Below, piece after piece: positions 5,546 through 46,138 of a stretch of 64,000 nt of DNA (within the stretch, counting starts at the first letter, position 1; each line of letters opens with the position of its first letter). The position numbers and the translations under genes are program-made. The stretch is taken from the NCBI GenBank assembly GCA_964566535.1, contig CAZMIO010000005.1:3271-67270 (forward strand), read 5' to 3'. The notes below the pieces were generated by a model. That model did no database searches, was not told the DNA's origin, and worked only from the letters and a program-made list of their open reading frames with translations. The stretch is from an uncultured Methanosarcinales archaeon. GTDB lineage: Archaea; Nanobdellota; Nanobdellia; Woesearchaeales; CAZOXR01.

Positions 5546-5666
5546 ATTATTTAAGTTCTTTTTCTAAAAGGACATCCAAATAAAACAAAAATATTTATAC
5601 CAGCGGCAACTAATATATTGGAAAGAGGATAAATAAAGTTTACTTTTATCATTGTACTATATAAAA

Positions 5667-10400: not shown

Positions 10401-10984
10401 GAGTAGATATTGTTGATTTAGTGACTGTTGCTAGGGCATTTGGAAATTATTCTCCTGAAGCAGATGTTAATGGTGATGGTAGAGTAGATATTGTTGATTT
10501 AGTTACAGTAGCTTCACACTTTGGAGAAATTTATGGTAATGCAGCTCCATCAATTGTTCCTAGGAGAATGCTGCCTACAGGCGATACAGTTAATGAGTGG
10601 CTTGAAGAAGCTCGTGAGCACCCAGGTGATTTTCCAGAATATCGAAGAGGTGTAGCAGTTCTTGAAAGGTTGGCACAAGTTTCTGCTCCAGAACAAACTA
10701 ACCTTTTACCTAACTATCCAAACCCATTCAACCCAGAAACTTGGATGCCTTTTGAATTAGCAGAAACAAGTGATGTGACTATTAGAGTTTATGATCCAAG
10801 AGGGGATGTTGTTAGGACTTTGAATTTAGGGCAAATGCCTGCTGGGACTTATAGTTCTCCGTTTAGGGCGCCTCGGTGGGATGGGAGGAATGATCTAGGA
10901 GAAAATGTTGGTTCTGGACTTTATATTATGGAATTGAATGCAGGAGATCATCATTCTACGAGAAGGATGTTGATGGTTAAGTGA
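7430..10984 (+). CDS. Secreted multidomain protein: parallel beta-helix, TolB-like WD40/PD40 propeller, double dockerin/EF-hand, C-terminal FlgD-Ig (T9SS-sorting-like) domain
   Basis: Signal ending ...TNARAQ; DGSRAHPFDTMQEGVDAVADGGTVNVASGRY beta-helix cap; repeated WSPDG; DTNGDDRVDIVDLVTVA and DVNGDGRVDIVDLVTVA; LLPNYPNPFNPETW...WDGRNDLGENVGSGLY...TRRMLMVK. Confidence 0.88.
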   Translation: MGLTEIVDGLRDFGERNANRLRRFAYSSLAFGIAATGAGFATNARAQGPNMFVDDSNVSGIEDGSRAHPFDTMQEGVDAVADGGTVNVASGRYDERISVTKSLSLIGEDPETTVVYGVQGESFILALLGGEHNVRGFTFRSSGSHTGIYSQMSGSIENCLFVGNRDGVSVGSGGNVDVTNNTFYRNLTGIDVIGNPSSQAEARIRNNILVGSDVAGLRGSFSSILFAHNCLSGNSQDFFDYTLSPDDVGNVFADPLFVSDTDFHLQLSSPAIGSGDVNGVSVDMGVYGGTNAPGVRIFIDMSIDNTYSLRVTENRHNNTVGVSIEANNPASTNENQLIREAGLLIPTRATLDPQNVGMYYLDEGSWYMLGERVDDGPLLPLFYEAYKVFLPPVAAVDSFLNRMRSFFEFIDSGREDIVRPRDINLNSGDYINLLVPFGSAPITRGLRIELPNAGTQDFFFKFTASQFPVLDLETKMEYGIEIIEGQSPIITKQRRGVLIYHSVDREIFVEYYQVDPTSPYTLGESGEVALDIPAFSLDRAMTVGLERLVGNEVPDLDGALSPAFRVTPDDLDFNQDNQPTLRMRYSDVLAAPGRAMRLNQQMDRDVKIFHHDGSQWSSLDTVVDGNFASAEISGGGMYAVGVEREVVIDPIPSNIMFIAQDSTRSSYELYSVDPFSQRITQLTRGLDIRDQEWSPDGSGVIVYSAEKRRAIIIPDVNNGNILEMPDEVMDDVWNYRWSPDGSKIATLRPDGLYLIDTEGIITELVRGGVWDHWWNPDGESIIYSGGSRERSTEIINIDGSERRRFTEDIDGYLYWLTFSPDRSQLAAAQSPSYYVMDTDGSGVLELYNHPTPNAMNPLFWFQDGGSLFFYSSRERPAGFYSVDSDGRNLQPLLEEYWDYTDFEGLRVEPQWGQGGIHGTPYSSSPDGTMLAFIGFSTPNMGIHVYDIEERRVRRLTEDLRPILGDIQWSRPINHLILGEESLPYDTNGDDRVDIVDLVTVARAFGNYSPEADVNGDGRVDIVDLVTVASHFGEIYGNAAPSIVPRRMLPTGDTVNEWLEEAREHPGDFPEYRRGVAVLERLAQVSAPEQTNLLPNYPNPFNPETWMPFELAETSDVTIRVYDPRGDVVRTLNLGQMPAGTYSSPFRAPRWDGRNDLGENVGSGLYIMELNAGDHHSTRRMLMVK
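10389..10503 (+). repeat. Two 34-nt direct repeats (81-nt period) encoding the dockerin duplicate
   Basis: atggtgatgatagagtagatattgttgatttagt at 10389 vs atggtgatggtagagtagatattgttgatttagt at 10470 (1 mismatch). Confidence 0.85.
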
Positions 10985-11242: not shown

Positions 11243-12851
<1,609 letters not shown>

Positions 12852-12863: not shown

Positions 12864-12983
12864 GGGCCCGTGGCTCAATGGTAGAGCGTCGCCCTTGCAT
12901 GATTTTTTCAAGTAAGGCGGAGGCTTCGGGTTCAAAACAACCAGTTGCGTAAAGCAATTGTTGTGAACTTCCCGACGGGTCCA
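12864..12983 (+). tRNA. trnA: tRNA-Ala(UGC) with two introns: 12900-12914 (37/38) and 12937-12969 (59/60, T-loop)
   Basis: Removing both inserts gives GGGCCCG...TCGCC-CT-TGC-AA-GGCGG...TCGGG-TTCAAAT-CCCGA-CGGGTCCA; the T-loop intron forms a canonical BHB (TTCA/TGAA helix, AAA and CTT bulges). Confidence 0.93.
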
Positions 12984-13086
12984 TTCCTAAATTTCATACT
13001 TATCTTTTCATAAAAGATAGCAATTCAATATTTGGAATATTGAATGAAGGGTTGATTTACATTGATGAGACCATGCATAAATTAAG

Positions 13087-16052
13087 ATCCAAACTATTAG
13101 GTGGATGGCTTGGCTCAAATAGAGATGAAGGGTGTGACAAGCTACATTATGCCCCGGCTAGATGCACGTAATCTTTGAACCGGGGGTCCCCGAATCTGAC
13201 TTCAGAATAAATCCGGAAGGATGTTGAACGCAGGGAATTGAAACATCTTAGTACCTGCAGGAAAAGAAATCAACGAGATGCTGTTAGTAAGAGCGACTGA
13301 ACACAGCACAAGGCAAACTGAATCTTTTGTTGAAAGACAAAAGAGATGTGGTGTTAAGACCTTTCTTTATTTCCTCTTTTGGGAACCTGAATTTCTCTGG
13401 AAAGAGAAACCTTAGAGTGTGATAGTCACGTAAGGGTAACTAAGAAGGAATTGAGAGGTATCTTGAGTACTATTCACTGGATACTGAATAGGAATATGGG
13501 AGGCATTAACTTCCAACCTTAAATATTATTTGAGCCCGATAGCAAACTAAGTACAATGATGGAAAGCTGAAAAGAACCCTTAACAGGAAGTTCAAAGAAC
13601 CTGAAACCTAATAGTGATAGTGTGGTACGGCTCTACGGAGTTGTGCCGTGCGTTTCGAATAACGTGCCAGGGAGTTTGTTCAAGTGGCAAGGGTAAATAA
13701 AATGTACCCGAAGCGAAAGCGATAAGCCTGCAACTTGTGAGAGGCAGCGTATGAAAGTGCGTGGAGTCACTTGGGCAAGACCCGAAACCGGACGATCTAA
13801 CCCTGAGTAAGGTGAAGCGAGGGTAAAACCTTGTGGAGGCCTGAAGAGGTTCTACGAGCAAGTGTTCTTCTAACTTGGGGCTAGGGGTGAAAAGCCAATC
13901 GAGTCCGGTGATAGCTGGTTCCTATCGAAATTGGCTGTAGTCAAGTCTTAAGCGAGATAACTTAAAGGGTAGAGCTACGGATTGGGGGTTTAGGTTTCGA
14001 AAGAGATCGATTCTCTGTCCAACTCCGAACTTTTAATTATTGTAGACCTTAGGAAACGGCGGCGCGGGGTAAGCCTGTGTCGCGAGAGGGGAACAACCCA
14101 GACTATGGTTAAGGTCCCAAAATATCAGTTAAGTGTTAAAGGGTGAAAGGTGTCTATTGTCGAAGACAGCGAGGAGGTTGGCTCAGAAGCAGCCACCCTT
14201 TAAAAAGTGCGTAACAGCTTACTTGTCAAGATAATAGGCCCTTAAAATGGACGGGGCTAAACTGATTACCGATACCATAGACATGCTAACAGCATAGTAG
14301 TAGATAGGCATTTTTTAAGGGCAGAAGCTCCTTTGCGAGAGGGTGTGGACCTTAAAGAAATGAAAATCCTGGCGGTAGTAGGATCATAGCAGAGTGAGAA
14401 TCTCTGTCACCGAAAGGGCAAGGGTTCCTTGACAATATAAATTAGTCAAGGGTTAGTTAGTCCTAACTATGCTCATAAATTGAGTAATGGGAAAGGGAAA
14501 CAGGTTAATATTCCTGTACTATCTAAGTATGTGCGGCAACGCAAGTTTAATTTCTATCTTTTTGGGGTAAGCTGACAAATGATCAAGTTTGCTAACTAAA
14601 ACAGATAAGGGGAGATTGTAATAATGAGAACCTTATCAAATTTAGGAATGGTGTTCTTATGGGACATTCAGCCGATATCTAGAAATCTTAAAAAAGGAAT
14701 TAAAATAAATCTTAGATAACTATACCCAGAACCAGCACTGGTGCCCCTGGGTGAGAAGCCCAAGGTGTGAAGGTGTAATCCGATTGAGGGAACTCGGCAA
14801 AATAGCCCCGTGACTTAGGTATAAGGGGTCCCTGCGATTGTAGCAATGCAATTGCAGGGTGCAATTACAAAGGGGGTCCGACTGTTTAACAAAAACTTAA
14901 CTGACTGCTAGCCTGTAAAGGTGCGTATAGTCAGTGACGTCTGCCCAGTGTCAGTACTTTAAGCTCGGTTTCAACTGAGTGAAGAGCTGATAAACGGCGG
15001 GAGTAACTATAACTCTCTTAAGGTAGCGTAATACCTTGTCGTTTGATTGACGACTTGCATGAATGACGTAACGAGATCCCTTCTGTCCCCAATTGGAATC
15101 CTCTGAACACTCTTTACTGGTGCAAAGGCCAGTGATCTCCAGTGGGAAGCGAAGACCCCGTGAAACTTTACTACAACTTATTGTTGCGATGTGGGTTTTG
15201 ATGTGTAGTGTAGGTGGAAGTCGCTAAAGCTTGGTCGTCAGGTCAAGTGTAGACAACAATGAAACACCACTCTTCAAAACCTACGTTGCTAATCTCGTAA
15301 GAGAAACAGCGATAGGTGGGTAGTTTGGCTGGGGTGGCACCCTGTTGAAACAATATCAACAGGACCCTAAGGTTGGCTCAAGCGGGTCAGAAATCCGCAG
15401 TAGAGTGCAAGAGCAAAAGCCAGCCTGACTGGATTCATAATAAGATTGAATTCAGACAAGAAATTGTGGTCTAGCGAACCTCTAAATCCTCCTTAATGGG
15501 GGTTAGAGATGACCGAAAAGTTACTCCGGGGATAACAGAGTTGTCGCGCCTGAGAGCTCATTTTAGTTCTGAGCGGCAAAAATCTTTTTGGATTTGACTC
15601 TGTAGTCAAAAGTTTTCCAGTAAGTTAGCTATAGCTATAGAACTAAGAGCTTATCGACGGCGCGGTTTGCTACATCGATGTCGGCTCCTCCTATCCTGGG
15701 CGTGCAGAAGCGCCCAAGGGTGCGGGTGTTCACCGATTAAAAGGAGTCGTGAGCTGGGTTCAGAACGCTGTGAGGCAGTTTGTTTGATATCTACTGGAGA
15801 TGTCAGTGTCTGAAGGGAAGGAAGCCATAGTACGAGAGGAACTGGCTTTCGAAGCCTCTGGTCTACCGGTTATCTGATAAGGTACGCCGGGCAGCTACGC
15901 TTTATAGGGATAAGTGCTGAAAGCATCTAAGCACGAAGCCCTCCTTGAAAAGAGACACTATAGAACTCGAGAAAAATACTCGTTTAATGGAATCGGTGTG
16001 TAAGTACCAAGCTTCGGCGAGGTATTCAGCATGCGATTTCCAATCGTTCATC
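13087..16052 (+). rRNA. rrl: 23S rRNA containing one BHB intron
   Basis: GAATTGAAACATCTTAGTA, GGGATAACAG, CGATGTCGGCTC, GAGCTGGGTT, AGTACGAGAGGAAC (sarcin-ricin loop); ends inferred from the processing stem. Confidence 0.97.
15562..15652 (+). other. 91-nt ORF-less BHB intron in 23S helix 89
   Basis: Central helix GCTC(15556-59)/GAGC(15647-50), bulges ATT and TTA, intron stem TTAGTTCT/AGAACTAA; excision restores GAGCTCAT-ATCGACGG. Confidence 0.9.
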
Positions 16053-16223
16053 CTTAATTTATGCATGGTTTTTCATTTTTTTCTAAAACCATTTATGATA
16101 TAGTGGTAGCTATATTGTAATTGATATCTTACGTTAAAACTGCTCACAGATGGTCTTAATTTAGAATTTTACCCAGCTCAAAATAGAAATAGATTTATAT
16201 GAACACACTCACCCGACATAGAT

Positions 16224-23063: not shown

Positions 23064-24038
23064 TTAGCGTCTGTACGTTTCTGGGCCTAGGTTTAATTTG
23101 GTGTCTTGCCATGAAGGGTTTAATGTTTCTTCGTGTCCTTTTACTTGTACTAGTCCCATTAATAGGATTGCTTTTTCTACTTGGTTAGGTTTTCTAGGAT
23201 TTTGGTCTTCTGGAGTTTGGATGAGGACGTTCCTTTCTAATCTTCTGTAGAAATCTAATGCTAATTCTGTAGGTGTTGCGAATGGATTCATATCCCAAGG
23301 TACTGGGTTTTTGTCACCCTGGTAGTGTTCGGCTATTGCTAGATATGCAGCTACTTCATGAGCGCAGATATCGACAATGTTGGTTGGTTCTGTCTCAGTT
23401 CCGTGTCTTATTTTATATCTTGAGGCCTCACAAATATGGTCTGTTGCAATACATGAGGCTAGATCTAATTGAGGTTTTGAATCTGATATTGGAACGTGAT
23501 CAACCCTCATACTGTATCTTGGATGTCCTTTTGTCCTTGAAGGGAGTGTTACGACTAAAGTTGCTCCATTGATTGGGACGGCACCCGAATCACCATAGTC
23601 ACGTTCTACTTCTATAGGAGATCCATCGATTGTATTGTCCTTAGGTGGATGTGCATAATGGAATATTCTAGCTCCTTCTAGACAGTCAATTATACTTACT
23701 CTTCTTGGTCTCCCGTCTGCTCCTATTGTAGGAGTATAAGAATAACCTAAATGTGCATCCTTGCCAGTTAAGTCATTAACTGCTTTTTCTCTTAGTTGAG
23801 CTGGAGTTATTATGCCATCTGAAGTGTCTCCATTAGAAATGGTTACGACTGGACCATATTTTTTGAATGTATTTGGACCTTTGAATCTTTTTGGAACCAA
23901 GTCATATTGAATAACTAGTGCTTCTTCTGGTTGTAAATCTAGAATTCCACCTATGAAACCTGAATCTGTATGTGTTAGGTCTAATTCTTTTATTTTAGCT
24001 GCTGTTGGTTCTGTGAAAAAACCTTTCTTTTTTGCCAT
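23064..24038 (-). CDS. Hypothetical protein with SWIM-like zinc motif
   Basis: Likely start MAKKKG at 24038 (tttaaata ~24 nt upstream); DHIC...DICAHEVAA. Confidence 0.7.
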   Translation of the reverse strand: MAKKKGFFTEPTAAKIKELDLTHTDSGFIGGILDLQPEEALVIQYDLVPKRFKGPNTFKKYGPVVTISNGDTSDGIITPAQLREKAVNDLTGKDAHLGYSYTPTIGADGRPRRVSIIDCLEGARIFHYAHPPKDNTIDGSPIEVERDYGDSGAVPINGATLVVTLPSRTKGHPRYSMRVDHVPISDSKPQLDLASCIATDHICEASRYKIRHGTETEPTNIVDICAHEVAAYLAIAEHYQGDKNPVPWDMNPFATPTELALDFYRRLERNVLIQTPEDQNPRKPNQVEKAILLMGLVQVKGHEETLNPSWQDTKLNLGPETYRR

Positions 24039-24117
24039 ATAAAATGGGATGCTTTTATGGTATTTAAACATATTGGAATGAAAAAATATTAATAACAATG
24101 TTGGTTTTTGGCTTTTT

Positions 24118-25065
24118 ATGAAAGCTTTAGTTACTGGTGGATCTGGGTTTATTGGGTCTAATTTGGCTCTTGAACTTGAGAGACAGGGTCATGAAGTTGT
24201 TGTAGTTGATAGTCTGTTTACTGGGACGAAGGATAACCTTGTTGGATTTAAGGGGAAGTTTATGGAGATTGACGTGTCGAAAATGCAAAGCATTTTTGAG
24301 CATGCTCAGAAATCTTCGATTTCTGACATTTCTAAGCCGTTTGAGATTGATGGAGAGTTTGATGTGGTGTATCACCAGGCAGCCATAACTGATCCCAGAT
24401 TTGGGGATGATGAGGAGATGGCGAGGGCCAATGTTGAGGGTTTTAAGAATATGATTGGGTTTGCTGAGAAGAATAATGCTAAGTTAGTTTATGCTTCATC
24501 TGCAAGTTTGTATGGGAACGGTCCTGTTCCGATGAAAGAGGATCAGGAGAAGGAGCTATTGAGTGCGTATGCAAAATCTAAGCTTGCTATGGATGAGCTT
24601 GCTGTTGGTTATTTTGATAAGATGCATATTGTTGGACTTAGGTATTTTAATGTGTTTGGTCCGCGTGAGGCTTTTAAAGGTAGACCTGCAAGTATGATAT
24701 ATCATTTAGCCAGGCAGATGAAGGATGGGAAGAGACCTAGGATATTTAAGATGGGGGAGCAGAAACGTGATCATATTTATGTGAAGGATGTTGTTAATGC
24801 TACGATAATGGCTGCTAGTGACTCTGCTAAGAGTGGTGTTTATAATGTTGGTACTGGTATTGGGACTAGTTTTAATGAGTTGGTTAGGGTGTTGAACGAA
24901 GTGTTAGGGACTGATCTAATGCCAGAGTATTTTGATAATCCTTATGATGATGAGACGTATCAGAGTGATACTCAAGCTGATATGTCTAATGCTTTTGAGG
25001 GGTTGGGTTTTAAGGCTGAGTATTCTATTAAAGATGGTGTTTCTGAGTATAGGGACAAAATATAA
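24118..25065 (+). CDS. hldD: ADP-L-glycero-D-manno-heptose 6-epimerase
   Basis: VTGGSGFIGSNL, HQAA, VYASSASLYG, YAKSK, LRYFNVFGPRE..KG..ASMIYH, RDHIYVKDV, YQSDTQAD. Confidence 0.88.
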   Translation: MKALVTGGSGFIGSNLALELERQGHEVVVVDSLFTGTKDNLVGFKGKFMEIDVSKMQSIFEHAQKSSISDISKPFEIDGEFDVVYHQAAITDPRFGDDEEMARANVEGFKNMIGFAEKNNAKLVYASSASLYGNGPVPMKEDQEKELLSAYAKSKLAMDELAVGYFDKMHIVGLRYFNVFGPREAFKGRPASMIYHLARQMKDGKRPRIFKMGEQKRDHIYVKDVVNATIMAASDSAKSGVYNVGTGIGTSFNELVRVLNEVLGTDLMPEYFDNPYDDETYQSDTQADMSNAFEGLGFKAEYSIKDGVSEYRDKI

Positions 25066-25092
25066 ATACGGCTAAAAAACACTTTTTCTTAT

Positions 25093-26073
25093 ATGAATAA
25101 GGGGTTAATTGGTTTAGTTGAGAAATTTAAGGAAAAAAGAATTCTGGTTATAGGAGATATTATGCTAGACAAATATATCAGAGGTAATGTTAAGAGGATT
25201 AGTCCGGAAGCTCCTGTTCAAGTTGTTAGTGTTGAGAAGGAAGATTATGCTCCTGGTGGTGCTGCTAATGTTGCAACTAATATAACTGGATTAGGGGCAG
25301 GGGCCTTGATTATTGGTTTTGTTGGTGATGATGAGACAAAAGATGTTTTGTTAAGTGAGCTGAAGAAGAGAGAGATATTTACTGAAGGGGTTGTTGTTGA
25401 TAATAAGAGGCCGACTATTCAGAAGGTACGGGTTCTTGGGCAGAACCAGCAGTTATTAAGGTTTGATTATGAAAAAAATGGTGGTGGAGACGAGTTAGTG
25501 GAGGAAGAGCTCATTAAGAACATTAAGGAATTGGTCAAGGGAGTCGATGCTGTTATTATTTCTGATTATAACAAGGGAGTTATTACTCAAAAGACGATTG
25601 ATGTGTTGAGTAAGATTGTGAAGGAAGAGGGTAAGATTGTGGTTGTTGATCCTAAGCCGAAGAATCTCAAATTTTATAATGGGTTTAGTCTTATAACTCC
25701 TAATTACAATGAAGCTGTAATGATGGCTAATTTGACCGGGGAAGCAAGTGAGGATATAGAGAAGGTTGGAAAGGGATTACTTAATGAGTTAGGCTCTACG
25801 CTTCTTGTTACACAAGGAGAGAAAGGGATGAGTTTATTTGAGAGTGAGGGGAAGATTACCCATATTCCTACGAAGGCTAAGGAAGTTTATGATGTTACTG
25901 GTGCTGGGGATACTGTTGTTGCCGTTTTGACACTTGCATTGTGTTCTGGTGCCTCCATGAAACAAGCTGCCATTATTGCTAATCATGCTGCAGGTGTTGT
26001 TGTTGGTAAGGTTGGAACTTCTACTGTTACAGTTGAGGAGATAGGACAGAGCCTAGGTACTGAAAATGAATAA
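25093..26073 (+). CDS. hldA: D-glycero-beta-D-manno-heptose-7-phosphate kinase (HldE kinase domain/RfaE-I)
   Basis: GDIMLDKY..G.V.RISPEAPV, PGGAANVA, SDYNKG, VDPK, TPN, DVTGAGDT. Confidence 0.93.
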   Translation: MNKGLIGLVEKFKEKRILVIGDIMLDKYIRGNVKRISPEAPVQVVSVEKEDYAPGGAANVATNITGLGAGALIIGFVGDDETKDVLLSELKKREIFTEGVVVDNKRPTIQKVRVLGQNQQLLRFDYEKNGGGDELVEEELIKNIKELVKGVDAVIISDYNKGVITQKTIDVLSKIVKEEGKIVVVDPKPKNLKFYNGFSLITPNYNEAVMMANLTGEASEDIEKVGKGLLNELGSTLLVTQGEKGMSLFESEGKITHIPTKAKEVYDVTGAGDTVVAVLTLALCSGASMKQAAIIANHAAGVVVGKVGTSTVTVEEIGQSLGTENE

Positions 26074-26599
26074 GGCAGTTTTTCTGGATAGGGATGGTAC
26101 ATTGAATCATGATGATGGGTATACTTACAAGACTGAGGATTTTAAATTAATGCCCGGTGTGATTGAGGCTCTTAATCTGCTGAAAGGTGAATTTGTTTTC
26201 TTTATTGTGACGAATCAGTCTGGTGTTGGGAGAGAGTATTATAGCTTAGATGATGTCCATAAGTATAATGATAAGATGATTATTGAGTTGAGTGGAGAGG
26301 GGATTGAGATAAAGAAGATATATATTTGCCCACATGGTCCTGATGATGGGTGTGATTGTAGGAAGCCTAGTACAAAGTATGTTCTTGATGCTGCTAAGGA
26401 ATTTGATATTGACCTTGCTAAGTCTTTTGTTATTGGAGATCATCCATGTGACGTTGAGATGGGTAAACGGGCTGGTTGTAGGTCAGTGTATCTGCTTTCT
26501 GGACATGGTGAGAAGCACATTGGCGAAGGAGTTAATGCTGATTTTATTGCAAAAGGGATGTTAGAAGCTGCTGAGTGGATTAAAGATGTCAAGGGTTGA
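26066..26599 (+). CDS. gmhB: D-glycero-D-manno-heptose 1,7-bisphosphate phosphatase
   Basis: FLDRDGTLN, VTNQSG, CPH...CDCRKP, IGD. Confidence 0.92.
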   Translation: MNKAVFLDRDGTLNHDDGYTYKTEDFKLMPGVIEALNLLKGEFVFFIVTNQSGVGREYYSLDDVHKYNDKMIIELSGEGIEIKKIYICPHGPDDGCDCRKPSTKYVLDAAKEFDIDLAKSFVIGDHPCDVEMGKRAGCRSVYLLSGHGEKHIGEGVNADFIAKGMLEAAEWIKDVKG

Positions 26600-27167
26600 G
26601 GCTAATAGGCAGGCAATTCACATAATTGTTGCGTTGTTTGCTTTCTTTTTGAAATTTTTTGATAAGTGGCAGATCTTGTTGGTTGCAGGTGTTGCTTTAG
26701 TGTTTAATCTGTTGGTGATCCCACATTTGGGGATTAAGAAGTATCTTTTTAGAGAGTATGAGCAGAGGGGTTTGATGTCTAAGGGGTTTGTGTCTTACGC
26801 GCTTTCTATGATAATATTGTTCTTGTTCTTCCCAATTGAGATTGGATCAGTTGCTATTGGGATTCTTGGCTTTGGTGATGGCTTTTCTAGCATGTTTGGG
26901 ATAAGCTATGGTAAGAGGAAACTTCATTGGAATGAGAAGAAGAGTTATGTTGGGTTTGTTAGTTTTGTGGTTGTTTCGTTTATGGTCTCTTTGGTGCTGA
27001 TGGTTTGGAATGGTTTTGATATTGGCCTTTTTACGATGGTGATTTTCTCTTTTATTGTAGCTTTTATTGGAGGGATTGTGGAGAGTTTGGCATGGAAAGT
27101 GGATGATAATTTGAGTGTGCCTATTGTTTGTGCTTTAGTTTTACAGATTTTGATAATATTTATATAA
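26586..27167 (+). CDS. SEC59/VTE5-type (dolichol/phytol kinase, cytidylyltransferase superfamily) membrane protein
   Basis: RQAIH, GDGFSSMFG..YG, KKSYVG, VES, DDNLSVP. Confidence 0.82.
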   Translation: MSRVEANRQAIHIIVALFAFFLKFFDKWQILLVAGVALVFNLLVIPHLGIKKYLFREYEQRGLMSKGFVSYALSMIILFLFFPIEIGSVAIGILGFGDGFSSMFGISYGKRKLHWNEKKSYVGFVSFVVVSFMVSLVLMVWNGFDIGLFTMVIFSFIVAFIGGIVESLAWKVDDNLSVPIVCALVLQILIIFI

Positions 27168-27188
27168 CTAGTTTGGTTGCTGGTTCAT

Positions 27189-27659
27189 ATGGGAAATAAG
27201 ATTATTGAGTTTGATTCGATTGGAGGAGTTTGTGATAGACTTCGGAATGAAGGGAAGAAGATAGTTATGTGTAATGGTAGTTTTGATATCCTTCATGCTG
27301 GACATATTAAGTTTTTGACTGAGGCTAAGGGGCAAGGGGATGTTTTAGTTGTTGGTTTGAATTCAGATTCTTCTATTAAAAAATATAAAAGTGAAGATAG
27401 GCCGATTAATAAGGAAGGAGATAGGGCTTTTGTTTTAGCTGCTCTTTTTGTTGTTGATTATGTTGTTGTGTTTTCTGATGTTAATCCTATAAAGTTGCTT
27501 GAGGTTGTGAAACCTTCAGTTTTTGTGAATGGGGTTGAGTACGGTGAGGATTGTGTTGAATCTGAAGTGGTTAAGAAGTTTGGTGGTCGAGTTCATTTGG
27601 TTGAGAACTATAAGGGGTTGTCTAGTACTAAGATCATTGAAGGGATGAAGAAGGAGTAG
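27189..27659 (+). CDS. hldC: Heptose-1-phosphate adenylyltransferase (HldE domain II)
   Basis: NGSFDILHAGH, VVGLNSDSS, RPI...R, KG.EY equivalent (NGVEY), GLSSTKII. Confidence 0.9.
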   Translation: MGNKIIEFDSIGGVCDRLRNEGKKIVMCNGSFDILHAGHIKFLTEAKGQGDVLVVGLNSDSSIKKYKSEDRPINKEGDRAFVLAALFVVDYVVVFSDVNPIKLLEVVKPSVFVNGVEYGEDCVESEVVKKFGGRVHLVENYKGLSSTKIIEGMKKE

Positions 27660-27676
27660 GGATTGAGGGTGTCAAG

Positions 27677-28729
27677 GTGAAGATTCTAATAATAAAGTTA
27701 GGTGCGATTGGAGATGTTGTTAGGACGACTTCTTTCTTGGAAGGGTTGAAGGGGAAGTATCCTGGATGTCAAATTGATTGGGTTACGTCTAAAGGTTCTG
27801 CTGATATGTTGAAGGGTAACGGTATGATTGATAATGTTTTTTTGGTTGGTGAAAATGTGGTTGATGGAGAGTATGATCTTGTTATTTCTTTAGATGATGA
27901 GGATGAGGCGCTTCGTATTGCTACTGATGTTAAGAAAGAGAAATTGGTTGGCGGATATTTTGATGGAGATGGGGAGAAGAAGTATACAGATGACTCTGCT
28001 AAATGGTTTGATATGGGACTTACATCTCGGTTTGGCAAGGAGAGGGCAGATGAGATGAAGAAGGAGAACGGTCGGACTTATCAATTGATTATTGCAGAGA
28101 TGCTTGGGATTGAGGTTAAGGATATGGTGCTTAATCTTAGTGATGATGAGACCCGGTTTGGAAAGGGGTTTTCTGAGCGGAAGGGTTTTGGTGGTGTTGG
28201 TGGAGACGACTGTGCAAGGGAAAGTCATGGGCTTGTTATTGGTCTGAATACTGGGGCTGGGAAGAGGTGGCCTCTTAAGAAGTTAGATGTTTCTAAGACA
28301 ATCTCGCTGGCCGATAGGTTAGTTGAGGAAATGGGTGCTAAAGTCATGTTATTTGGTGGGCCTGAGGAGGAGGAGAGGAATTCTCGGATTCTTGAGGGAG
28401 TTAAATTGGATGTTAGGGATAGTGTTATTGATGCTGGTTGTAATAATAGTCTTAGGGAGTTTTCTGCTCTTGTGAATCTTTGTGATGTAGTGGTTGTTAG
28501 TGATAGTCTTGCTATGCATATTGCGATTGCGCTGAAGAAGAAAGTGGTGGTGTTTTTTGGTCCTACGTCTGCTGCTGAGATTGAACTTTATGGTCGTGGG
28601 AAGAAGGTTGTTGCTCGGAATGAATGTGCGTGTTGTTATAGGAAGGAGTGTGATGTTAGCCCTAGTTGTATGGATGATATTACTGTTGATGAGTTGTTTG
28701 AAGGGGTTAGAGGAGTTATTGGAAGTTAA
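27677..28729 (+). CDS. Glycosyltransferase family 9 (heptosyltransferase-like)
   Basis: ILIIKLGAIGDVVRT, GKRWP, DSLAMHIAIAL, FFGPT, C-terminal CACCYRKEC...CM. Confidence 0.9.
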   Translation: MKILIIKLGAIGDVVRTTSFLEGLKGKYPGCQIDWVTSKGSADMLKGNGMIDNVFLVGENVVDGEYDLVISLDDEDEALRIATDVKKEKLVGGYFDGDGEKKYTDDSAKWFDMGLTSRFGKERADEMKKENGRTYQLIIAEMLGIEVKDMVLNLSDDETRFGKGFSERKGFGGVGGDDCARESHGLVIGLNTGAGKRWPLKKLDVSKTISLADRLVEEMGAKVMLFGGPEEEERNSRILEGVKLDVRDSVIDAGCNNSLREFSALVNLCDVVVVSDSLAMHIAIALKKKVVVFFGPTSAAEIELYGRGKKVVARNECACCYRKECDVSPSCMDDITVDELFEGVRGVIGS

Positions 28730-37761: not shown

Positions 37762-40095
37762 ATGAGATTACGGCTAAAAAAAATAAAACCTCATTTAACA
37801 TATATTATCCTATTTATAGTCATATTTTCATTTTTCTATGGAGCGTATTATAATTTAAATTGGATAGTTGCTCTTGAGCCGTTGACATTTTATCTTGCAA
37901 AAATTGAATTTTTAGGGCAATCGATGAAGACGTATCATGATATCTTTCCTTTGTGGAATCCTTACACTATGGGTGGGCAGCCTTATATTGGTGGACCAGA
38001 TAATCCACAAATGACTTCAATAATTGGACTGCTGCTGCTGATATTTGATGGGTCAAATTACGTCTATACATTACTTGTGTTAATTGATCTGTTTTTGGCT
38101 GGAGTTATGATGTATTTACTGTTGATGTACTTAACAAAAGACAAAAATGCAGCATTCCTCTCTGCAATAGTCTATGTGTTTAATCCATGGATATCTACTA
38201 ATGTTGCTGCTGCTGGCCTAACTACGCTGAATGTTTATTGGCTGGTTCCACTGCTTATGATTTTTGTGATTAAGGCATTTAAGAAAGATAATTGGGTGTT
38301 TAATTCTGTTATAGCAGGGTTGATATTTTCATTGCTCATCAGGTTTAGTACTGGGCTTAAGGTATTTCTCTTTGTGGCTTTACTTTTTGGAACTTACATA
38401 ATAGTTTATGTTATTGGTAAGAATTTTCGGAATAAACTTATTAAGGCATTTTTTGTTGTATTGATTATTGTTGCAATTACATTTGGTACTAATGCGCAAT
38501 TCATCCTTCCAGAAAAAGAGTTTCTTGATATGACTGCTAGAGGTCATCTTTCATGGGAGCAAAGCAGTGGAGGTAAGTTTCCTTTAAAGGACTTAATGTC
38601 ATTTGTTGAGCCTTTCTATGAAGGCTGGCCCCAATTTAGAAGAGAGGGGGCTTCGAGAAATATTGGAATTGTTGCTTTTATCCTTTTTGGGTTTGCAGTT
38701 TTTAAATATTGGAGAAATAAAAAAGTATTGACTTTTTCTCTTGGTGCTTTGATATCTATCCTTATTGTTACTGGGTCGCCATTCTATTACCTTTTGTGGA
38801 AATATGTACCTCCATTCCATAGTTTTAGGCATACACACAGGGCTGCGGTTTTGTATATCTTTACAATGTCTGTTCTTGTTGGCTATGGTTTTTTGGCTTT
38901 ACGTTCTGTGCTGAAAGAAAAGTGGGATAAACTTAATGATAAGATGATTTTTGTTGTTGTGACTTTATTGGTACTGCTCAATGTTGTAGTTTTGGGTATA
39001 AGTCCATATGCTATTGAGATAGGAGATATTACGCCTGCCTTAGAGAAAGACTATCTAATGCAGGAAGTGTCAAAAGATGAAGCTATCTTTAGGATTAAAG
39101 TCTTTGAAACAAATGGGATTGATTGGGGAACTGAATTTAGCTACCTTCGTTATGGAATAGGTGGGCTGTATGGAAATACTGGAATCTGGCTGACTGAGTG
39201 GATGAATGAGTTTTTAGCAGTTGGGTTGAGGCAGCGTGCAAAATTCTGGGGGATATTTAATGTGAAGTATGTCCAGTCATTAAGCAACATTAGTGTAGAG
39301 GGATTGGAGTTTGTAGAAAAATTTGAGAAATGTACTGAGTGTTACCCGGTAAATCCCAATCTTGAAAAAATGTTTGGGAACTATCTTTTTGAGAATAAAA
39401 AGTTCTTGCCTCGAGCATATTTTGTTGATGATTCGGTATTGGTTGTTGGCGAGGAAATTTCTAAGAGGCAGACTATCTTGCAATTTATGCTTGATGAGAA
39501 TTTTGATCCATCCAAGTCAGTCTTTATTAAAGGTAAGGATATGCTAAATCAATATAGCTTTAGTGAACTTGAGAAGTACTCTTCTATTGTTCTTGTTAGT
39601 GGTTCTGTTGATGAAAATAGTGGAAGTATATTGAAAAGGTACGTTGATGGTGGAGGAGTGGTGTTGCCCGACTTATTAGGGGGAGAGACAGTTGTAACTG
39701 CCGATGATGTCAAGGAGATGTTTGGCGGCTTTAATGGAAGTTTGAGAGAGGTTGGTGATGAGAACTACATAACTCATAAGTTTGGAAGATATGAAGTTAA
39801 GGTTAATGGGAAGAAAGGCTTTTTAGTACTGAGTGAGAAGTTTTCTTCATTTCCCGGATGGATGGCTTTGGCTGATGGGAAGGACCTTGGTGTGATGAAA
39901 GCGGATGGTATGATAACTGCCGTTTATGTTGATAATGAGTATGATAGTGTGATGATGGAATATATGCCTCGAAGTGTGGTAATTGGTCGGAATATCACTG
40001 TTTTTACATTCATATTAGTAGGGATTTACTTTGCTTGGTATATTTTTGGTAGACGGAAGAAGGTTGTTGAGGGAGATGATGTCCGGAAGACTTAA
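37762..40095 (+). CDS. YfhO-family GT-C membrane glycosyltransferase-like protein, copy 1
   Basis: PLWNPYTMGGQP, about 12 TMs, KFLPRAY, LVLSEKFSSFPGW.A..DG, KADG...AV, EYMP, C-terminal TM. Confidence 0.85.
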   Translation: MRLRLKKIKPHLTYIILFIVIFSFFYGAYYNLNWIVALEPLTFYLAKIEFLGQSMKTYHDIFPLWNPYTMGGQPYIGGPDNPQMTSIIGLLLLIFDGSNYVYTLLVLIDLFLAGVMMYLLLMYLTKDKNAAFLSAIVYVFNPWISTNVAAAGLTTLNVYWLVPLLMIFVIKAFKKDNWVFNSVIAGLIFSLLIRFSTGLKVFLFVALLFGTYIIVYVIGKNFRNKLIKAFFVVLIIVAITFGTNAQFILPEKEFLDMTARGHLSWEQSSGGKFPLKDLMSFVEPFYEGWPQFRREGASRNIGIVAFILFGFAVFKYWRNKKVLTFSLGALISILIVTGSPFYYLLWKYVPPFHSFRHTHRAAVLYIFTMSVLVGYGFLALRSVLKEKWDKLNDKMIFVVVTLLVLLNVVVLGISPYAIEIGDITPALEKDYLMQEVSKDEAIFRIKVFETNGIDWGTEFSYLRYGIGGLYGNTGIWLTEWMNEFLAVGLRQRAKFWGIFNVKYVQSLSNISVEGLEFVEKFEKCTECYPVNPNLEKMFGNYLFENKKFLPRAYFVDDSVLVVGEEISKRQTILQFMLDENFDPSKSVFIKGKDMLNQYSFSELEKYSSIVLVSGSVDENSGSILKRYVDGGGVVLPDLLGGETVVTADDVKEMFGGFNGSLREVGDENYITHKFGRYEVKVNGKKGFLVLSEKFSSFPGWMALADGKDLGVMKADGMITAVYVDNEYDSVMMEYMPRSVVIGRNITVFTFILVGIYFAWYIFGRRKKVVEGDDVRKT

Positions 40096-42358
40096 AGAGC
40101 ATTATCTGTATATCTCTATTATTGTTATAGTGGCTATCTTTTTGGTTAGAGAAGGTATTGGATTTTACAATGTGATGTATCCTGGTGATGCGTTAAGCCA
40201 ATTCTTATCAAATGAGATTGTGATTAAGGAATCTTTTCTTCAAGGTGCTGTGCCATTATGGGATCCATTCATTATGAGTGGGACTCCCTTATTAGCTAAG
40301 GCTCAGTCTACTGTTTTTTCAGTTTATAGTTTGATTATGATATTGTTGCCGACACCATATTTAGCAACTACATTTAATTCGTTTTTACATGTTGTGTTAT
40401 TAGGGTTGGGAGTTTATTGGTTAGGTTTGCTTAGTGGTTTGGAAAAAAAGTTTGCGATATTGCCTTCTTTGGTTGTTTTGTTGAGTGCTTATGTTGCTGT
40501 TGAGGTGTTTTTTGGTATATTCCAACTGATGGGGATTACTTACTTTGTTTATTTGTTGATTTTTGTCATTAAAGGTCTTCGTAAGAGGAACTTTATTGAG
40601 TATGCCCTTTTGAGTAGTGTGTTTTCTTCTATGATGTTCTTTTCAGGGGCGTTTGAGATGTTTACTTTCTCTTTTTGGGTTGTACTTTATGTGCTGGTGT
40701 TTAATCTGTTTGGTAAGGGGTTTAATAAACGGTTGTTGAAGTCATTCTTATTTGGAGTTGTGTTTCTTTTAGTTGCTGTTGGGCTGGTGTTTGTTAAATT
40801 ATTGCCTGCTTTGGAGCTTGCTGAAATGAGTCAAAGGCAGGGAGCAACGTTTGATTTTGAAAGGTCTATTGGAAGTCATTTGAATATTAAGAATTCGTTT
40901 AATATGATTGTTGATGATAGGGCGTTGCCTAACTTGTTTAGTCATTCTGTTAAGGGAACTGATAGTTTGTCTATTGGTATTATTGCTTTTTTGCTGGTGT
41001 TAGTTAGTTTTGGGAATTTTAAGAAGAAGAAATATTTGTTTTATTTGCTTATGGGGGTTCTTGGGTTGTTGATGATAACTAGATCTCCTTGGAACTGGAT
41101 CTTGTGGAAATATTTTCCGTTCTTTAGTAAGCAGAAGCATGTTATGAAGGCGAAATTTGTATTTTTGATTGTTAGTGCTATCCTTTCAGGGTTTGGGTTT
41201 AGGTTTTTGGTTTTGAAATTTAAGAAGTTTGAGAAATTAGTTTATGGTGGTGTTATTTTGTTGTTAGTTGTTGGTTCGTGGGGATTTACGTATGATATGG
41301 AGATTAAAGACTCTCGTCCTGAGATTGAAGGTAATTTGGTTATGAAGTTTATGAGTTCGGATACCGATATGTTTAGGTTTAAGGCTTACGAAACAAATGG
41401 GATTGATTGGGGGACTAATTATTACTCTAAGTTTTATGGGTTGTCTGATGTTTATGGTTATGAGAACCTATGGTTGATTGATTATATGCCGATGTTTTTG
41501 AGTGTTGCTAATCAGGATATGTCAAAGATGTTTGGAATCTTGAATATGAAGTACATGACTTCTATGAATGAGTTGAACATCTCTGGTTTTGAATTGGCCC
41601 AGAAGTTTGACGATCTGGAGTGTGAGTATGTTGAGGGGGAGATAAAGGATTTTAAAGGAATGCCTTCGTGTCCTGGTTATGATGTGCTTTTGAAGGCGTG
41701 GGGCCCATACTTGTATGAGAATACTGAGTTTTTGCCTCGTGCATATCTTGTTAAGGATTCTGTTTTGGTTTTAGGTGAAGGGGGTTTGCAGTTGGTTTAT
41801 GGTTTGATGTTGGATTCCCGATTTGATCCTTTTAAGTCTGTGATTATTTCTGGTAAGAATAGTATTAATGATTATTCTTTTGATGACATTAAGAAGTATA
41901 GTGCTGTTTTCTTGGCTCCAGGTTCTATCGATGAGAATAGTGGCGGATTGTTGAAGTGGTATGTTGATAATGGTGGGTTGTTGTTTCCAAATGTTATTCT
42001 GGGTCAGAGTAGTGTTCTAGATTCTGATGTTACTAAGATGTTTGATGGTTTTAGTGAGGGTGTTTTGGTTTCGTATGTTCAAGATAATTTCAATAAGTAT
42101 TCTGCTGAAGTTGAAGGTCCTGGTTGGTTGGTTGTTAGTGAGAAGTTTTCTATGTTTCCTGGTTGGGAGACTAATGTTGGGGAGATTTTCCGGGCTGATG
42201 GGATTATAAGTACGGTTTATGTTGAGCATGCTGGAGAGGTTGTTTTTGATTATAAGCCTGAGTCCTTTGTTTTAGGTAGGAATGTTAGTGTTGGGGTTTT
42301 AGTATTAATTTTATCCTATTTTGGATTCTTATTTTACAGGAGGAAAAATGAAACCTAA
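40076..42358 (+). CDS. YfhO-family GT-C membrane glycosyltransferase-like protein, copy 2
   Basis: PLWDPFIMSGTP, ETNGIDWGT shared with copy 1, FLPRAY, VVSEKFSMFPGW, DYKP; probable start 40076. Confidence 0.85.
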   Translation: MMSGRLKEHYLYISIIVIVAIFLVREGIGFYNVMYPGDALSQFLSNEIVIKESFLQGAVPLWDPFIMSGTPLLAKAQSTVFSVYSLIMILLPTPYLATTFNSFLHVVLLGLGVYWLGLLSGLEKKFAILPSLVVLLSAYVAVEVFFGIFQLMGITYFVYLLIFVIKGLRKRNFIEYALLSSVFSSMMFFSGAFEMFTFSFWVVLYVLVFNLFGKGFNKRLLKSFLFGVVFLLVAVGLVFVKLLPALELAEMSQRQGATFDFERSIGSHLNIKNSFNMIVDDRALPNLFSHSVKGTDSLSIGIIAFLLVLVSFGNFKKKKYLFYLLMGVLGLLMITRSPWNWILWKYFPFFSKQKHVMKAKFVFLIVSAILSGFGFRFLVLKFKKFEKLVYGGVILLLVVGSWGFTYDMEIKDSRPEIEGNLVMKFMSSDTDMFRFKAYETNGIDWGTNYYSKFYGLSDVYGYENLWLIDYMPMFLSVANQDMSKMFGILNMKYMTSMNELNISGFELAQKFDDLECEYVEGEIKDFKGMPSCPGYDVLLKAWGPYLYENTEFLPRAYLVKDSVLVLGEGGLQLVYGLMLDSRFDPFKSVIISGKNSINDYSFDDIKKYSAVFLAPGSIDENSGGLLKWYVDNGGLLFPNVILGQSSVLDSDVTKMFDGFSEGVLVSYVQDNFNKYSAEVEGPGWLVVSEKFSMFPGWETNVGEIFRADGIISTVYVEHAGEVVFDYKPESFVLGRNVSVGVLVLILSYFGFLFYRRKNET

Positions 42359-43058
42359 TGTTAGTATGTTTTTTCCTGCTTATAATGAGAGGGAGAATAT
42401 TGTTAAGTTGGTTAGTGATGCTAAGAGGGTGCTTTCTGAGGTTGCCAATGATTATGAGGTGATTGTTGTTGTGTATGAGGGTTCTACTGATGGGACTATT
42501 GATGTGGTTAGGAGTCTTGAGGATTCTCATGTTAAGTTAGTTATTCAGCCGCTTTCTAAGAAAGGTGTTGGTTATGCGAACATCATGGGTTTTGATGTTG
42601 CTAAGTATGAATATGTTTTTTATGCTGATTCTGATAATCAGTTTGATCTTCAAGAGTTTAAGAAGTTTTTGCCTTTCCTTAACTATGATATTGTTGCTGG
42701 GTATAGGATTGATAGGAAGGATCCATTCTTACGGATATTTACTTCTAAGGTTTATAACTTTATAGTTAAGTTGGTGTTTGGTGCAAAGGAACGGGATGTT
42801 GATTGTGCTTTTAGGTTGGTTAATAGGCGTGTTTTTTCTAAGGTTAGGCTTAATTGTAGGCTTGGTTTGGGGACTACTGAATTGCTTGTTAAGGCTAGGC
42901 GTGCTGGTTTTAGGATTAAGGAGGTTGGAGTTCATCACTATGCTCGGTTGAAGGGTAGTTCTGTATTTGAGTCTGAAGGTATTAATTTACCTAAACCAAA
43001 AGTAGTATTTGATCTTATAAAAGAGATGAAGGTGCTTTGGAAGGATTTGAAAAGGTAA
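42348..43058 (+). CDS. GT2 glycosyltransferase
   Basis: FFPAYNE, EGSTD, KGVGYA, ADSDNQFD, DVDCAFRL; AGGAGG SD upstream. Confidence 0.92.
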   Translation: MKPNVSMFFPAYNERENIVKLVSDAKRVLSEVANDYEVIVVVYEGSTDGTIDVVRSLEDSHVKLVIQPLSKKGVGYANIMGFDVAKYEYVFYADSDNQFDLQEFKKFLPFLNYDIVAGYRIDRKDPFLRIFTSKVYNFIVKLVFGAKERDVDCAFRLVNRRVFSKVRLNCRLGLGTTELLVKARRAGFRIKEVGVHHYARLKGSSVFESEGINLPKPKVVFDLIKEMKVLWKDLKR

Positions 43059-45449: not shown

Positions 45450-46138
45450 AAACTGTAATATTATGTGGAGGGGAAGGTACTCGTCTTAAGGAGTTGACAG
45501 AAGGTATTCCTAAGCCGCTTGTTGAGATTGGTGGTAAGCCGATATTATGGCATATAATGAAGATTTATTCTTCTTTTGGTTTTAATGATTTTGTTCTTTG
45601 TTTGGGTTATAAGGGTGAGATGATTGAGGATTATTTTAAGAATAATAAAGAAGATTGGAAGATAGAGTTTGTTGATACTGGTGCTAAGACTAATACTGGT
45701 GGAAGGATTAAGAAAGTTGAGGAATATGTTTCTGGAAGGTTTTTGGCAACTTATGGGGATGGGTTGGCCGATATTGATCTTAAAGGGTTGGTTGATTTTC
45801 ATGATGGTAAAAAAAAGATTGCAACAATGACTTGTGTTAATCCATTATCTCAGTTTGGGGTTTTGGATATTAGCGACGATTTGGTTATGGGTTTTAGGGA
45901 GAAGCCTCCACTTAACCAATGGATAAATGGTGGGTTTTTTGTTTTTGAGCCGAAAATATTTGAGTATCTTACTGATGATTGTGTTTTGGAGAAGGAACCT
46001 TTTGAGAAGTTGGCTATTGATAAACAGATGGCTGCTTATAAGTTTGAGAAATATTGGGATTGTATGGATACGTTTAAAGATATGCAGACTATGAATAAGT
46101 TGTGGAAGGATGGGAGTGCGCCTTGGAAGAGGTGGTGA
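45446..46138 (+). CDS. rfbF: Glucose-1-phosphate cytidylyltransferase
   Basis: ILCGGEGTRL.E.T..IPKP, TGGRIK, TYGDG, WINGGFFV, WDCMDT. Confidence 0.88.
   Translation: MKTVILCGGEGTRLKELTEGIPKPLVEIGGKPILWHIMKIYSSFGFNDFVLCLGYKGEMIEDYFKNNKEDWKIEFVDTGAKTNTGGRIKKVEEYVSGRFLATYGDGLADIDLKGLVDFHDGKKKIATMTCVNPLSQFGVLDISDDLVMGFREKPPLNQWINGGFFVFEPKIFEYLTDDCVLEKEPFEKLAIDKQMAAYKFEKYWDCMDTFKDMQTMNKLWKDGSAPWKRW

Follow-up and report, generated by a model that had tools for sequence, protein, structure and literature searches.

The stretch of DNA considered here (hereafter the window) comprises 64,000 nucleotides (nt) of contig CAZMIO010000005.1, to which all absences reported for the window refer, and it carries on its + strand six tightly packed genes for enzymes of the ADP-heptose pathway, a glycosyltransferase of family GT9 and a small membrane protein. 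In order, these are hldD, encoding an ADP-glyceromanno-heptose 6-epimerase-like protein of the SDR family (24118..25065; 315 amino acids (aa); TIGR02197, PF01370), hldA for heptose-7-phosphate kinase (25093..26073; TIGR02198), gmhB for a heptose 1,7-bisphosphate 7-phosphatase of the HAD-IIIA type (26066..26599; 177 aa; NF006506, TIGR01656), the gene for a 193-aa membrane protein with eight helices, assigned by remote homology as a distant member of the CTP_transf_1 superfamily (26586..27167), hldC for heptose-1-phosphate adenylyltransferase (27177..27659; 160 aa; TIGR02199; alternative ATG start at 27189) and the gene for a GT9-family glycosyltransferase with a Cys-rich C-terminus (27677..28729; 350 aa; PF01075). 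All six open reading frames (ORFs) lie at the coordinates given in the original prediction, which had been made from the sequence alone, and their order and tight packing were borne out as well: hldA and gmhB overlap by 8 nt and gmhB and the membrane gene by 14 nt, and the gaps measure 27 nt between hldD and hldA, 9 nt between the membrane gene and hldC (21 nt if hldC starts at the ATG at 27189) and 17 nt between hldC and the GT9 gene, the stop of which overlaps by 4 nt with a convergent methyltransferase gene.

The host is an archaeon of the Woesearchaeota (DPANN), as had also been predicted. Full archaeal 16S and 23S rRNA genes (11350-12810 and 13077-16062) lie together 8 kb upstream of the operon, with archaeal LonB and Kae1 genes between the rRNAs and the operon; altogether, these archaeal genes are located 5-13 kb upstream on the same contig. 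Moreover, a UPF0182 protein encoded in the window falls into a cluster (at least 90% identity) of which another member bears the name "Candidatus Woesearchaeota archaeon", and nearly all named best matches of the GT9 protein and of HldA are labelled Woesearchaeota or Nanoarchaeota. The six genes have a GC content of 0.37-0.42, compared with 0.366 for the entire window. The six genes are a genuine operon of a Woesearchaeota archaeon.

The ADP-heptose pathway and its conservation in archaeal loci

Comparison with curated family models supported the predicted enzyme identities at the family level, although not all of them with equal firmness. HldA (378.3 bits with TIGR02198; cut-off 345) and the GT9 protein score above their cut-offs, whereas HldD, GmhB and HldC have the expected model as their best match and stay just below the equivalog cut-offs. 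HldD reaches 254.6 bits with TIGR02197 (E = 1.2e-75; cut-off 274.6) and 163 bits with PF01370, and its runner-up family, GalE, only 107.7 bits. GmhB is best matched by NF006506 (152 bits; cut-off 178), with TIGR00213 at 127 bits (cut-off 149.6), and it passes the models for HAD-IIIA and histidinol-phosphatase-type domains (TIGR01656, 139.9 bits; cut-off 84). HldC scores 173.5 bits with TIGR02199 (cut-off 181.5), and its best match in the PDB is 5X9Q (4.2e-28), deposited as a putative cytidylyltransferase. Because of these scores under the trusted cut-offs, HldD, GmhB and HldC have to be regarded as divergent members of their families and not as certified equivalogs. Judged by these families, the Hld and GmhB enzymes would produce ADP-heptose.

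The motif NYKGLSST of HldC, which had been noted in the original prediction for its missing arginine, conforms to the pattern xxxGxS(S/T)T, and in the alignment with 5X9Q a leucine of the window protein indeed stands opposite the arginine of the STTR5 motif. The motif could be located in 28 related HldC sequences (from 27 archaeal-labelled loci and the bacterial-labelled locus L080), and none of them has arginine at this position. According to a commentary on Tang et al., STTR5 is not strictly needed for promiscuity towards nucleoside triphosphates (NTPs) (PMC11461863).

With HldA as a query, a scan of GTDB species genomes yielded 80 loci, 49 of them archaeal-labelled and 31 bacterial. The archaeal-labelled loci are mainly from DPANN (Woesearchaeota, Nanoarchaeota and related names), with HldA identities of 45-61%, and they reveal a conserved synteny across Woesearchaeota. 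GmhB is present after hldA in 45 of these 49 loci and HldC in 40, and the combination hldA-gmhB-hldC is found in 38; directly upstream there is GmhA in 25 loci, and an HldD orthologue (at least 45% identity) directly precedes hldA in 22. Some GT9 protein is encoded within 6 kb in 29 of the 49 loci. A distant GT9 paralogue (19-27% identity) occurs in 28 loci, i.e. upstream of hldA in 26 and downstream in two, and in a single locus (L060) an orthologue of the window GT9 follows hldC. In a quick neighbour-joining tree of HldA that included the bacterial sequences, the archaeal-labelled sequences group together in a single clade that excludes most of the bacterial ones; within it the window is sister to locus L005, and a few bacterial-labelled contigs (L015, L048, L050, L052, L057) are nested there.

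In view of previous work, the novelty implied by the original prediction is weaker than it seemed. Yelton et al. 2013 (PMC3750248) reported a cluster for ADP-glyceromanno-heptose (AGMH) in Iplasma that is syntenic with distant relatives, and proposed a role in S-layer glycosylation; Tang et al. 2024, as cited in PMC11573728 and PMC11461863, found functional nucleoside-diphosphate (NDP)-heptose enzymes in archaea and defined STTR5. Archaeal clusters and their S-layer role have thus already been proposed (PMC3750248; PMC11573728), and commentaries by the authors and others describe the reason for the existence of archaeal manno-heptose as still elusive (PMC11573728, PMC11461863). Our literature search found no paper that links Woesearchaeota with a heptose pathway. 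The operon of the window shares with these archaeal systems a complete or near-complete ADP-heptose cluster, for which a part in S-layer or surface glycosylation is proposed, and a monodomain nucleotidyltransferase without the STTR5 arginine. It differs from them in belonging to DPANN/Woesearchaeota, in the physical coupling of a GT9 gene and in its conserved GT-C-like partners. Thus, the pathway itself is known and an hld operon with GT9 is widespread in Woesearchaeota; the coupling of a GT9 gene to it in archaea, like the conserved GT-C-like partners, is widespread but had not been described, whereas the insertion of the kinase-like gene is rare.

The absence of gmhA from the window, which had been stated in the original prediction, was confirmed by tblastn with four queries, i.e. 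E. coli GmhA (validated as a query by its matches in 29 hld loci, including 25 with archaeal labels) and three DPANN GmhA proteins, and no SIS domain was found in the scanned ORFs. If the pathway is complete, GmhA must therefore be encoded outside these 64 kb. Two other genes were considered as potential replacements of gmhA, with support for neither of them. One is a 344-aa ORF on the - strand, divergent from hldD (23064-24098), which has no Pfam match even at E = 10 and no homologue among the 90-odd loci fetched. The other is a 334-aa gene that L005 has in addition, between its hldD and hldA (1308-2312; also in L093); it is absent from the window and has only sub-threshold Pfam matches, including a weak one to ART-PolyVal (E = 0.0024). 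In locus L091 (JACOUX010000019.1), a transaldolase gene (TAL_FSA; 1-289) is located approximately 10 kb from the GT9 orthologue on a contig with an hld operon, and its product is a possible source of sedoheptulose 7-phosphate.

Several taxonomic labels in this set of loci call for caution. L015 (LBZW01000015.1, Candidatus Nomurabacteria) has a DPANN-type hldD-hldA-gmhB-hldC operon with an HldA 57% identical to that of the window and branches beside the window and L005, which reflects either gene transfer between DPANN and the candidate phyla radiation or misbinning; L048, L050, L052 and L057 are labelled Bacillota, Vulcanimicrobiota and Synergistia. Many loci of an 'uncultured Methanosarcinales archaeon' (L008, L010, L013, L016-L019 and others) cluster with Woesearchaeota and Nanoarchaeota and have the common gene order, so that their Methanosarcinales label looks unreliable. 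Overall, some of the locus labels (Methanosarcinales, Nomurabacteria, Bacillota) may result from mislabelling or misbinning.

The GT9 transferase and its glycan-assembly neighbours

The GT9 protein is well above the cut-off of PF01075 (54.4 bits; cut-off 22) but below those of the equivalog models for the heptosyltransferases of lipopolysaccharide (LPS) synthesis (TIGR02195, 79.6 versus 134.6 bits; TIGR02193, 73.9 versus 185.3; TIGR02201, 60.2 versus 170.2), and these models for heptosyltransferases I, II and III thus do not indicate orthology to WaaC, WaaF or WaaQ. A profile search of the PDB returned the uncharacterised GT9 protein 3TOV (2.6e-22), WaaF (1.2e-11), WaaC (1.3e-6) and one unrelated antitoxin chain (E = 0.023); neither this search nor the one by sequence (E up to 1 and 10) gave a chain named as an autotransporter heptosyltransferase such as TibC or AAH, the presence of which in our copy of the PDB is unchecked. 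Residues 1-55 align with the first 55 residues of WaaC, including the GD motif (G12-D13), and a DS-x-x-x-H region, which also aligns with a WaaC segment, is retained. Both G12 and D13 are invariant in 28 GT9 orthologues, and the aspartate of this N-terminal motif is presumably catalytic. At the C-terminus, the Cys-rich character noted in the original prediction comes down to a partly conserved cluster of five cysteines (C317, C319, C320, C325, C331), with C325 conserved in at least 90% of the 28 orthologues. There are more than 3000 GT9 homologues, the named top matches, at around 50% identity, being almost all labelled Woesearchaeota or Nanoarchaeota, and public annotations already name these proteins as GT9.

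Characterised GT9 enzymes act on Kdo (3-deoxy-D-manno-octulosonic acid)-lipid A, an acceptor that is anchored in the membrane by its lipid. The lpx, kds and waaA families, however, were absent from the approximately 46 window ORFs scanned with Pfam. A GT9 orthologue is situated directly 3' of hldC in the window, in L005 and L093, in L060 and in L007, and three genomes carry a GT9 orthologue and an hld operon on one contig at a distance of 14-23 kb. This genomic linkage suggests ADP-heptose as the donor substrate of the GT9 enzyme.

Further genes with a likely role in glycan assembly are found downstream in the window. Two tandem genes on the + strand (37762-40095, encoding 777 aa, and 40031-42358) specify paralogous GT-C-like proteins of approximately 775 aa with multiple transmembrane segments, for which there is no curated family and no Pfam match at threshold; the second one matches PF10131 (PTPS_related), which we take to be a GT-C-type membrane family, with E = 0.034. 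At least 15 of the 49 archaeal loci, versus none of the 31 bacterial loci, encode homologues of these proteins at a distance of 3.5-6 kb on the downstream side of hldA, which makes the paralogues candidate GT-C-like downstream transferases of a heptose glycan. Also on the + strand, and 14-17 kb from the hld operon, Pfam identifies genes for a GT2 enzyme (42321-43058; 245 aa), an Epimerase_2-like protein (44001-45449; 482 aa) and an NTP transferase similar to glucose-1-phosphate cytidylyltransferase (45446-46138; 230 aa). Homologues of the three occur within 6 kb of hldA as well: GT2 in 29 of 49 archaeal versus one of 31 bacterial loci, the NTP transferase in 28 of 49 versus none of 31, and the Epimerase_2-like protein in six of the 49 archaeal loci. 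Since the NTP transferase is closest to glucose-1-phosphate cytidylyltransferase (PDB 1TZF, 6.7e-65) and a usual neighbour of hld genes, CDP-glucose may feed into the same glycan. Its assignment as the GDP-heptose enzyme HddC was rejected, as the HddC-like structures 6JQ8 and 5XHW are matched at only about 1e-22.

The surroundings of GT9 orthologues in other genomes have the same flavour. In L007, hldC and GT9 are found beside two AglB/STT3 genes (both with the WWDYG motif), a PF00953 AglH-like gene and genes for DegT, GT2, GT4 and a flippase, and other GT9 orthologues flank PMT_2/DUF6541 GT-C genes, a 238-aa DPM1-like GT2 and small membrane proteins. A second glycan module in the window (54390-60351), consisting of genes for an epimerase, a GT2 enzyme (213 aa), a 549-aa membrane protein and a 120-aa protein together with a DUF6541/PMT_2 GT-C gene on the opposite strand, is the one that flanks the GT9 orthologues in L001 and L006, and L003 and L090-L092 have its GT-C part; in the window, the GT9 gene has moved from this module to beside hldC. 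Finally, L021, which is typical of these clusters, combines many of the elements in the order GT2, GT9, methyltransferase, NTP transferase, gmhA, a 301-aa protein without a clear family assignment, hldA, gmhB, hldC, CBM96 protein, GT2, methyltransferase, Epimerase_2-like protein and 775-aa protein. The 301-aa protein (5091-5996), with a weak deoxyhypusine-synthase-like match, occupies the place between gmhA and hldA where hldD sits elsewhere. An HldD orthologue is missing from 27 archaeal hld loci, among which L021 was the one looked at; in such loci, heptose may be produced in its D,D form only, or another modifying enzyme may be employed.

The membrane protein encoded within the operon

In the original prediction, the 193-aa protein had been described as a SEC59/VTE5-like kinase. 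By remote homology its place in this superfamily holds; a match to a curated model, by contrast, does not exist. The protein has no Pfam, NCBIfam or PDB match of its own and does not hit PF01148 even at E = 10; its matches to YfhO, SLATT and DUF5964 were dismissed as noise, being below cut-off and not common to its homologues. A word-indexed homologue search returned its own cluster only, and an exhaustive phmmer search found 2419 homologues, with a single close cluster (P0122, 51% identity), which is the L005 gene, and the remainder at 26-42%. About half of the top 150 homologues are 410-510 aa long. Ten homologues were scanned, six of them longer proteins (287-483 aa), and four of these six turned out to be fused to DUF92/TIGR00297; by their length about half of the top homologues look like such fusions. 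We take DUF92/TIGR00297 to be the VTE6 phytyl-phosphate kinase family, a known partner of VTE5.

An alignment of 45 family members shows eight invariant residues (R8, H12, G97, D98, G123, E166, D174, N175), all of them intact in the window protein, and the motif GDGxAxxxGxxxGxxKLPWNxxKS...VESLPxxxDDNxTVP. PF01148 (CTP_transf_1) is weakly matched by nine of the 45 (best 5e-5) and is the only family matched by more than two of them, and the names given to homologues by JGI are dolichol kinase, phytol kinase and CTP-dependent diacylglycerol kinase. When the 45-sequence profile was compared by hhalign with the PF01148-annotated protein P0305, the result was 96.9% with E = 1.6e-10, and the 129 aligned columns cover the GDG and DDN motifs. 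An AlphaFold2 model based on the 45-sequence alignment has eight helices and a predicted local distance difference test (pLDDT) score of 96.6 (53 from the single sequence). PDB sequence and profile searches with the protein gave nothing, nor did a Foldseek search of the PDB with the model at E = 0.001 or better, and because there is no significant PDB match, membership in CarS/CdsA cannot be claimed from structure.

The alignment with the PF01148 protein and the DUF92 fusions are the reasons why we assign the membrane protein to the superfamily of CTP-dependent lipid kinases and cytidylyltransferases, as a distant member that appears most similar to prokaryotic prenol kinases; polyprenol and CTP would be its putative substrate and phosphate donor. 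With the CTP-dependent polyprenol kinases (Sec59, DOLK, VTE5; PF01148) it has in common the GDG...G...K...G and DDN...P core, over which the profiles align, as well as homologues that are named dolichol or phytol kinase and, among the longer ones, fused to DUF92. It differs from them by its short length of 193 aa and by the lack of a curated-model match, of a DUF92 partner in the window and of a significant match to a solved structure.

The position of this gene had been taken in the original prediction as a clue to the acceptor of the heptose, and this part of the argument did not survive the comparison with relatives. Among 51 archaeal hld operons, only two lineages have the gene, i.e. the window and L005/L093 (the latter two being 100% identical). 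L005 displays the same gmhB-membrane gene-hldC order with the same overlap, and its GT9 and HldA are 63% and 66% identical to those of the window. A first metagenome scan for the membrane gene gave nothing and a second one only an L005-identical contig and distant homologues unlinked to hld; in general, distant homologues reside in unrelated gene contexts. The insertion is real and retained in two diverged lineages, yet the gene, missing from all 49 GTDB loci and with homologues that stand in other contexts elsewhere, is no general companion of hld genes. It entered the operon in particular lineages and is not a general feature of the system.

Possible acceptors of the heptose

An important question is where the heptose goes. 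The operon resembles the bacterial ADP-heptose/LPS system in its four enzyme families, with HldA and HldC split as in some bacteria, and in the GT9 fold with the WaaC-like GD and DS-x-x-x-H regions. In contrast to that system, it belongs to an archaeal host without lipid A or Kdo genes among the window ORFs scanned, its GT9 falls below the WaaC/WaaF/WaaQ cut-offs, gmhA is unlinked, a prenol-kinase-like gene is embedded, and the neighbours are of the GT2, GT-C and Agl types and not waa genes. With archaeal N-glycosylation by Agl proteins, on the other hand, it shares the cytoplasmic glycosyltransferases, DPM1-like GT2 enzymes, GtrA-like proteins and a flippase that recur around GT9 orthologues, and in L007 the two AglB genes and the AglH-like gene next to hldC-GT9. 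We know of no characterised Agl pathway that uses a GT9 enzyme or heptose.

On balance, we therefore lean towards the view, also present in the original prediction on other grounds, that the operon makes ADP-heptose and that the GT9 enzyme transfers the heptose to a lipid-linked surface glycan and not to LPS; what supports this route are the conserved GT9, GT2 and GT-C-like neighbours and the AglB and AglH-like genes of L007. HldA would phosphorylate D-glycero-D-manno-heptose 7-phosphate, GmhB would remove the 7-phosphate and HldC adenylylate the 1-phosphate, such that the operon would yield ADP-L,D-heptose, with GmhA provided from elsewhere in the genome. As a cytoplasmic, membrane-peripheral GT-B transferase, the GT9 enzyme could then move heptose from ADP-heptose onto a glycan linked to polyprenyl (dolichyl) phosphate instead of Kdo-lipid A. 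GT2 enzymes would extend this glycan and, after flipping, GT-C-type enzymes (the 775-aa paralogues, PMT_2/DUF6541 proteins or an AglB encoded elsewhere in the genome) would transfer it to a surface protein or lipid. Most plausibly, the 193-aa protein would phosphorylate free polyprenol and thus supply carrier lipid in this lineage.

A number of observations weigh against this picture or parts of it. HldD, GmhB and HldC, although clear top matches of the right models, stay just under the equivalog cut-offs, and tblastn found gmhA neither in the window nor in L005. Most GT9 orthologues examined (L001, L003, L006, L090-L092) are not adjacent to hld genes, and the donor specificity of the orthologue group is therefore deduced from co-occurrence only. 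AglB was not found in the window, where ORFs of at least 80 aa contain no WWDYG-type motif and the scanned ORFs no PF02516, which is also a difference to the Agl systems. As for the membrane protein, tblastn and the family hidden Markov model detected its gene in none of the 49 archaeal hld loci, overlapping genes are weak evidence of a shared function because DPANN genomes are so compact, and the Foldseek hit with the highest probability was CdsA (4q2g_B; 0.60, TMq 0.43, not significant).

The most serious competitor concerns only the membrane gene and would leave the remainder of the operon unchanged: it may be a passenger, i.e. a general salvage kinase for prenols (geranylgeraniol, phytol or dolichol) that would serve the recycling of membrane lipids or carriers, came to lie between gmhB and hldC in one lineage and has no specific role in heptose transfer, a view to which we assign only slightly less than an even chance. 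Its absence from 49 of 51 archaeal hld operons and the unrelated contexts of its homologues fit in well, as do the long homologues (410-510 aa) and the DUF92 fusions in four of the six scanned, which point to a two-step module for prenol-to-prenyl-diphosphate salvage; homologue P0125 has a DUF92 gene 3 kb away. Against a mere passenger speak the retention of its place after gmhB, which it overlaps, and before hldC in two lineages the HldA and GT9 proteins of which are only 66% and 63% identical, and the intact state of all eight family-invariant residues; a carrier-lipid kinase would also make functional sense in a glycan operon. Unlikely, but worth considering, is heptosylation by GT9 of a membrane glycolipid or lipoglycan, e.g. 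an archaeol-based one, that would stay in the membrane as a functional analogue of the LPS core, in place of a dolichol-linked precursor meant for proteins. The lipid-anchored acceptor of characterised GT9 enzymes and the PDB matches to WaaC and WaaF would agree with this, as would the missing AglB and the presence of an LPG_synthase_TM gene and PMT_2-type genes nearby, whereas the L007 context with its two AglB genes, AglH-like gene and flippase argues for the lipid-linked glycan, and no lipid-specific genes are conserved beside the operon.

Direct heptosylation of surface proteins in the cytoplasm, with GT9 acting in the manner of TibC and AAH, appears quite improbable to us. The conserved neighbours are enzymes of lipid-linked glycan synthesis, and the PDB searches led to 3TOV, WaaF and WaaC and to no chain named as an autotransporter heptosyltransferase, with the reservation made above about our PDB copy. 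Still, archaea lack the lipid A acceptor, E. coli is known to glycosylate proteins in an ADP-heptose-dependent manner (PMC11461863), and the window encodes a large beta-helix/dockerin surface protein (7430-10984). The Cys-rich C-terminus of GT9 is also reminiscent of the metal finger of TibC. That the entire segment is of bacterial origin and was joined to an archaeal contig by mis-assembly, through chimerism or contamination, has next to no probability. The pathway is typically bacterial and the five nested loci L015, L048, L050, L052 and L057 carry bacterial labels, but archaeal rRNAs, LonB and Kae1 precede the operon on the very same contig, the GC content of the operon matches that of its flanks, the same operon occurs on Woesearchaeota contigs of up to 234 kb, archaeal-labelled HldA proteins make up their own clade and the flanking glycan genes, too, have Woesearchaeota homologues.

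Beyond the favoured lipid-linked glycan, a wider scheme can be imagined, which we put forward as speculative and rather doubtful. A Woesearchaeota-wide module of ADP-heptose pathway, GT9 and GT-C-like proteins of approximately 775 aa might build a heptose-containing surface glycan on polyprenyl-phosphate, with the prenol kinase recruited here for scavenged, host-derived dolichol, which would tie glycan assembly to a lipid-auxotrophic symbiosis. Such a module would give heptose its first physiological use among Archaea and GT9 enzymes their first class of acceptors that are neither LPS nor protein. The bacterial mimicry and the role in host attachment brought up in the original prediction are speculative. 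A heptosylated surface glycan assembled on a lipid carrier would mean a new class of GT9 acceptors for glycoenzymology and, for the DPANN archaea, which are thought to live attached to hosts, a conserved determinant of the cell surface. With GT9 physically coupled to the pathway and with conserved GT2 and GT-C-like partners, the locus and about 50 relatives of it in Woesearchaeota provide a tangible starting point for the question of why archaea make heptose; the kinase-like gene, as a narrow lineage feature, should not be generalized.

Some additional features of the window deserve mention. In the 16S-23S spacer, Rfam calls a tRNA (12864-12934) exactly at the gathering score (29 bits), which ARAGORN does not report. 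The 1184-aa protein encoded at 7430-10984, with a right-handed beta-helix, dockerin and FlgD-Ig-like domains, is probably secreted or exposed at the surface, and a function as a glycosylation target or adhesin is conceivable. Convergent with the operon, the - strand carries at 28726-31636 genes for two S-adenosylmethionine (SAM) methyltransferases, a radical-SAM enzyme and a PIG-L-type deacetylase, and the equivalent place in L005 is taken by a B12-radical-SAM gene and a nitroreductase/methyltransferase gene. Given these unlike gene sets, the sugar-tailoring genes beside GT9 differ between the window and L005.

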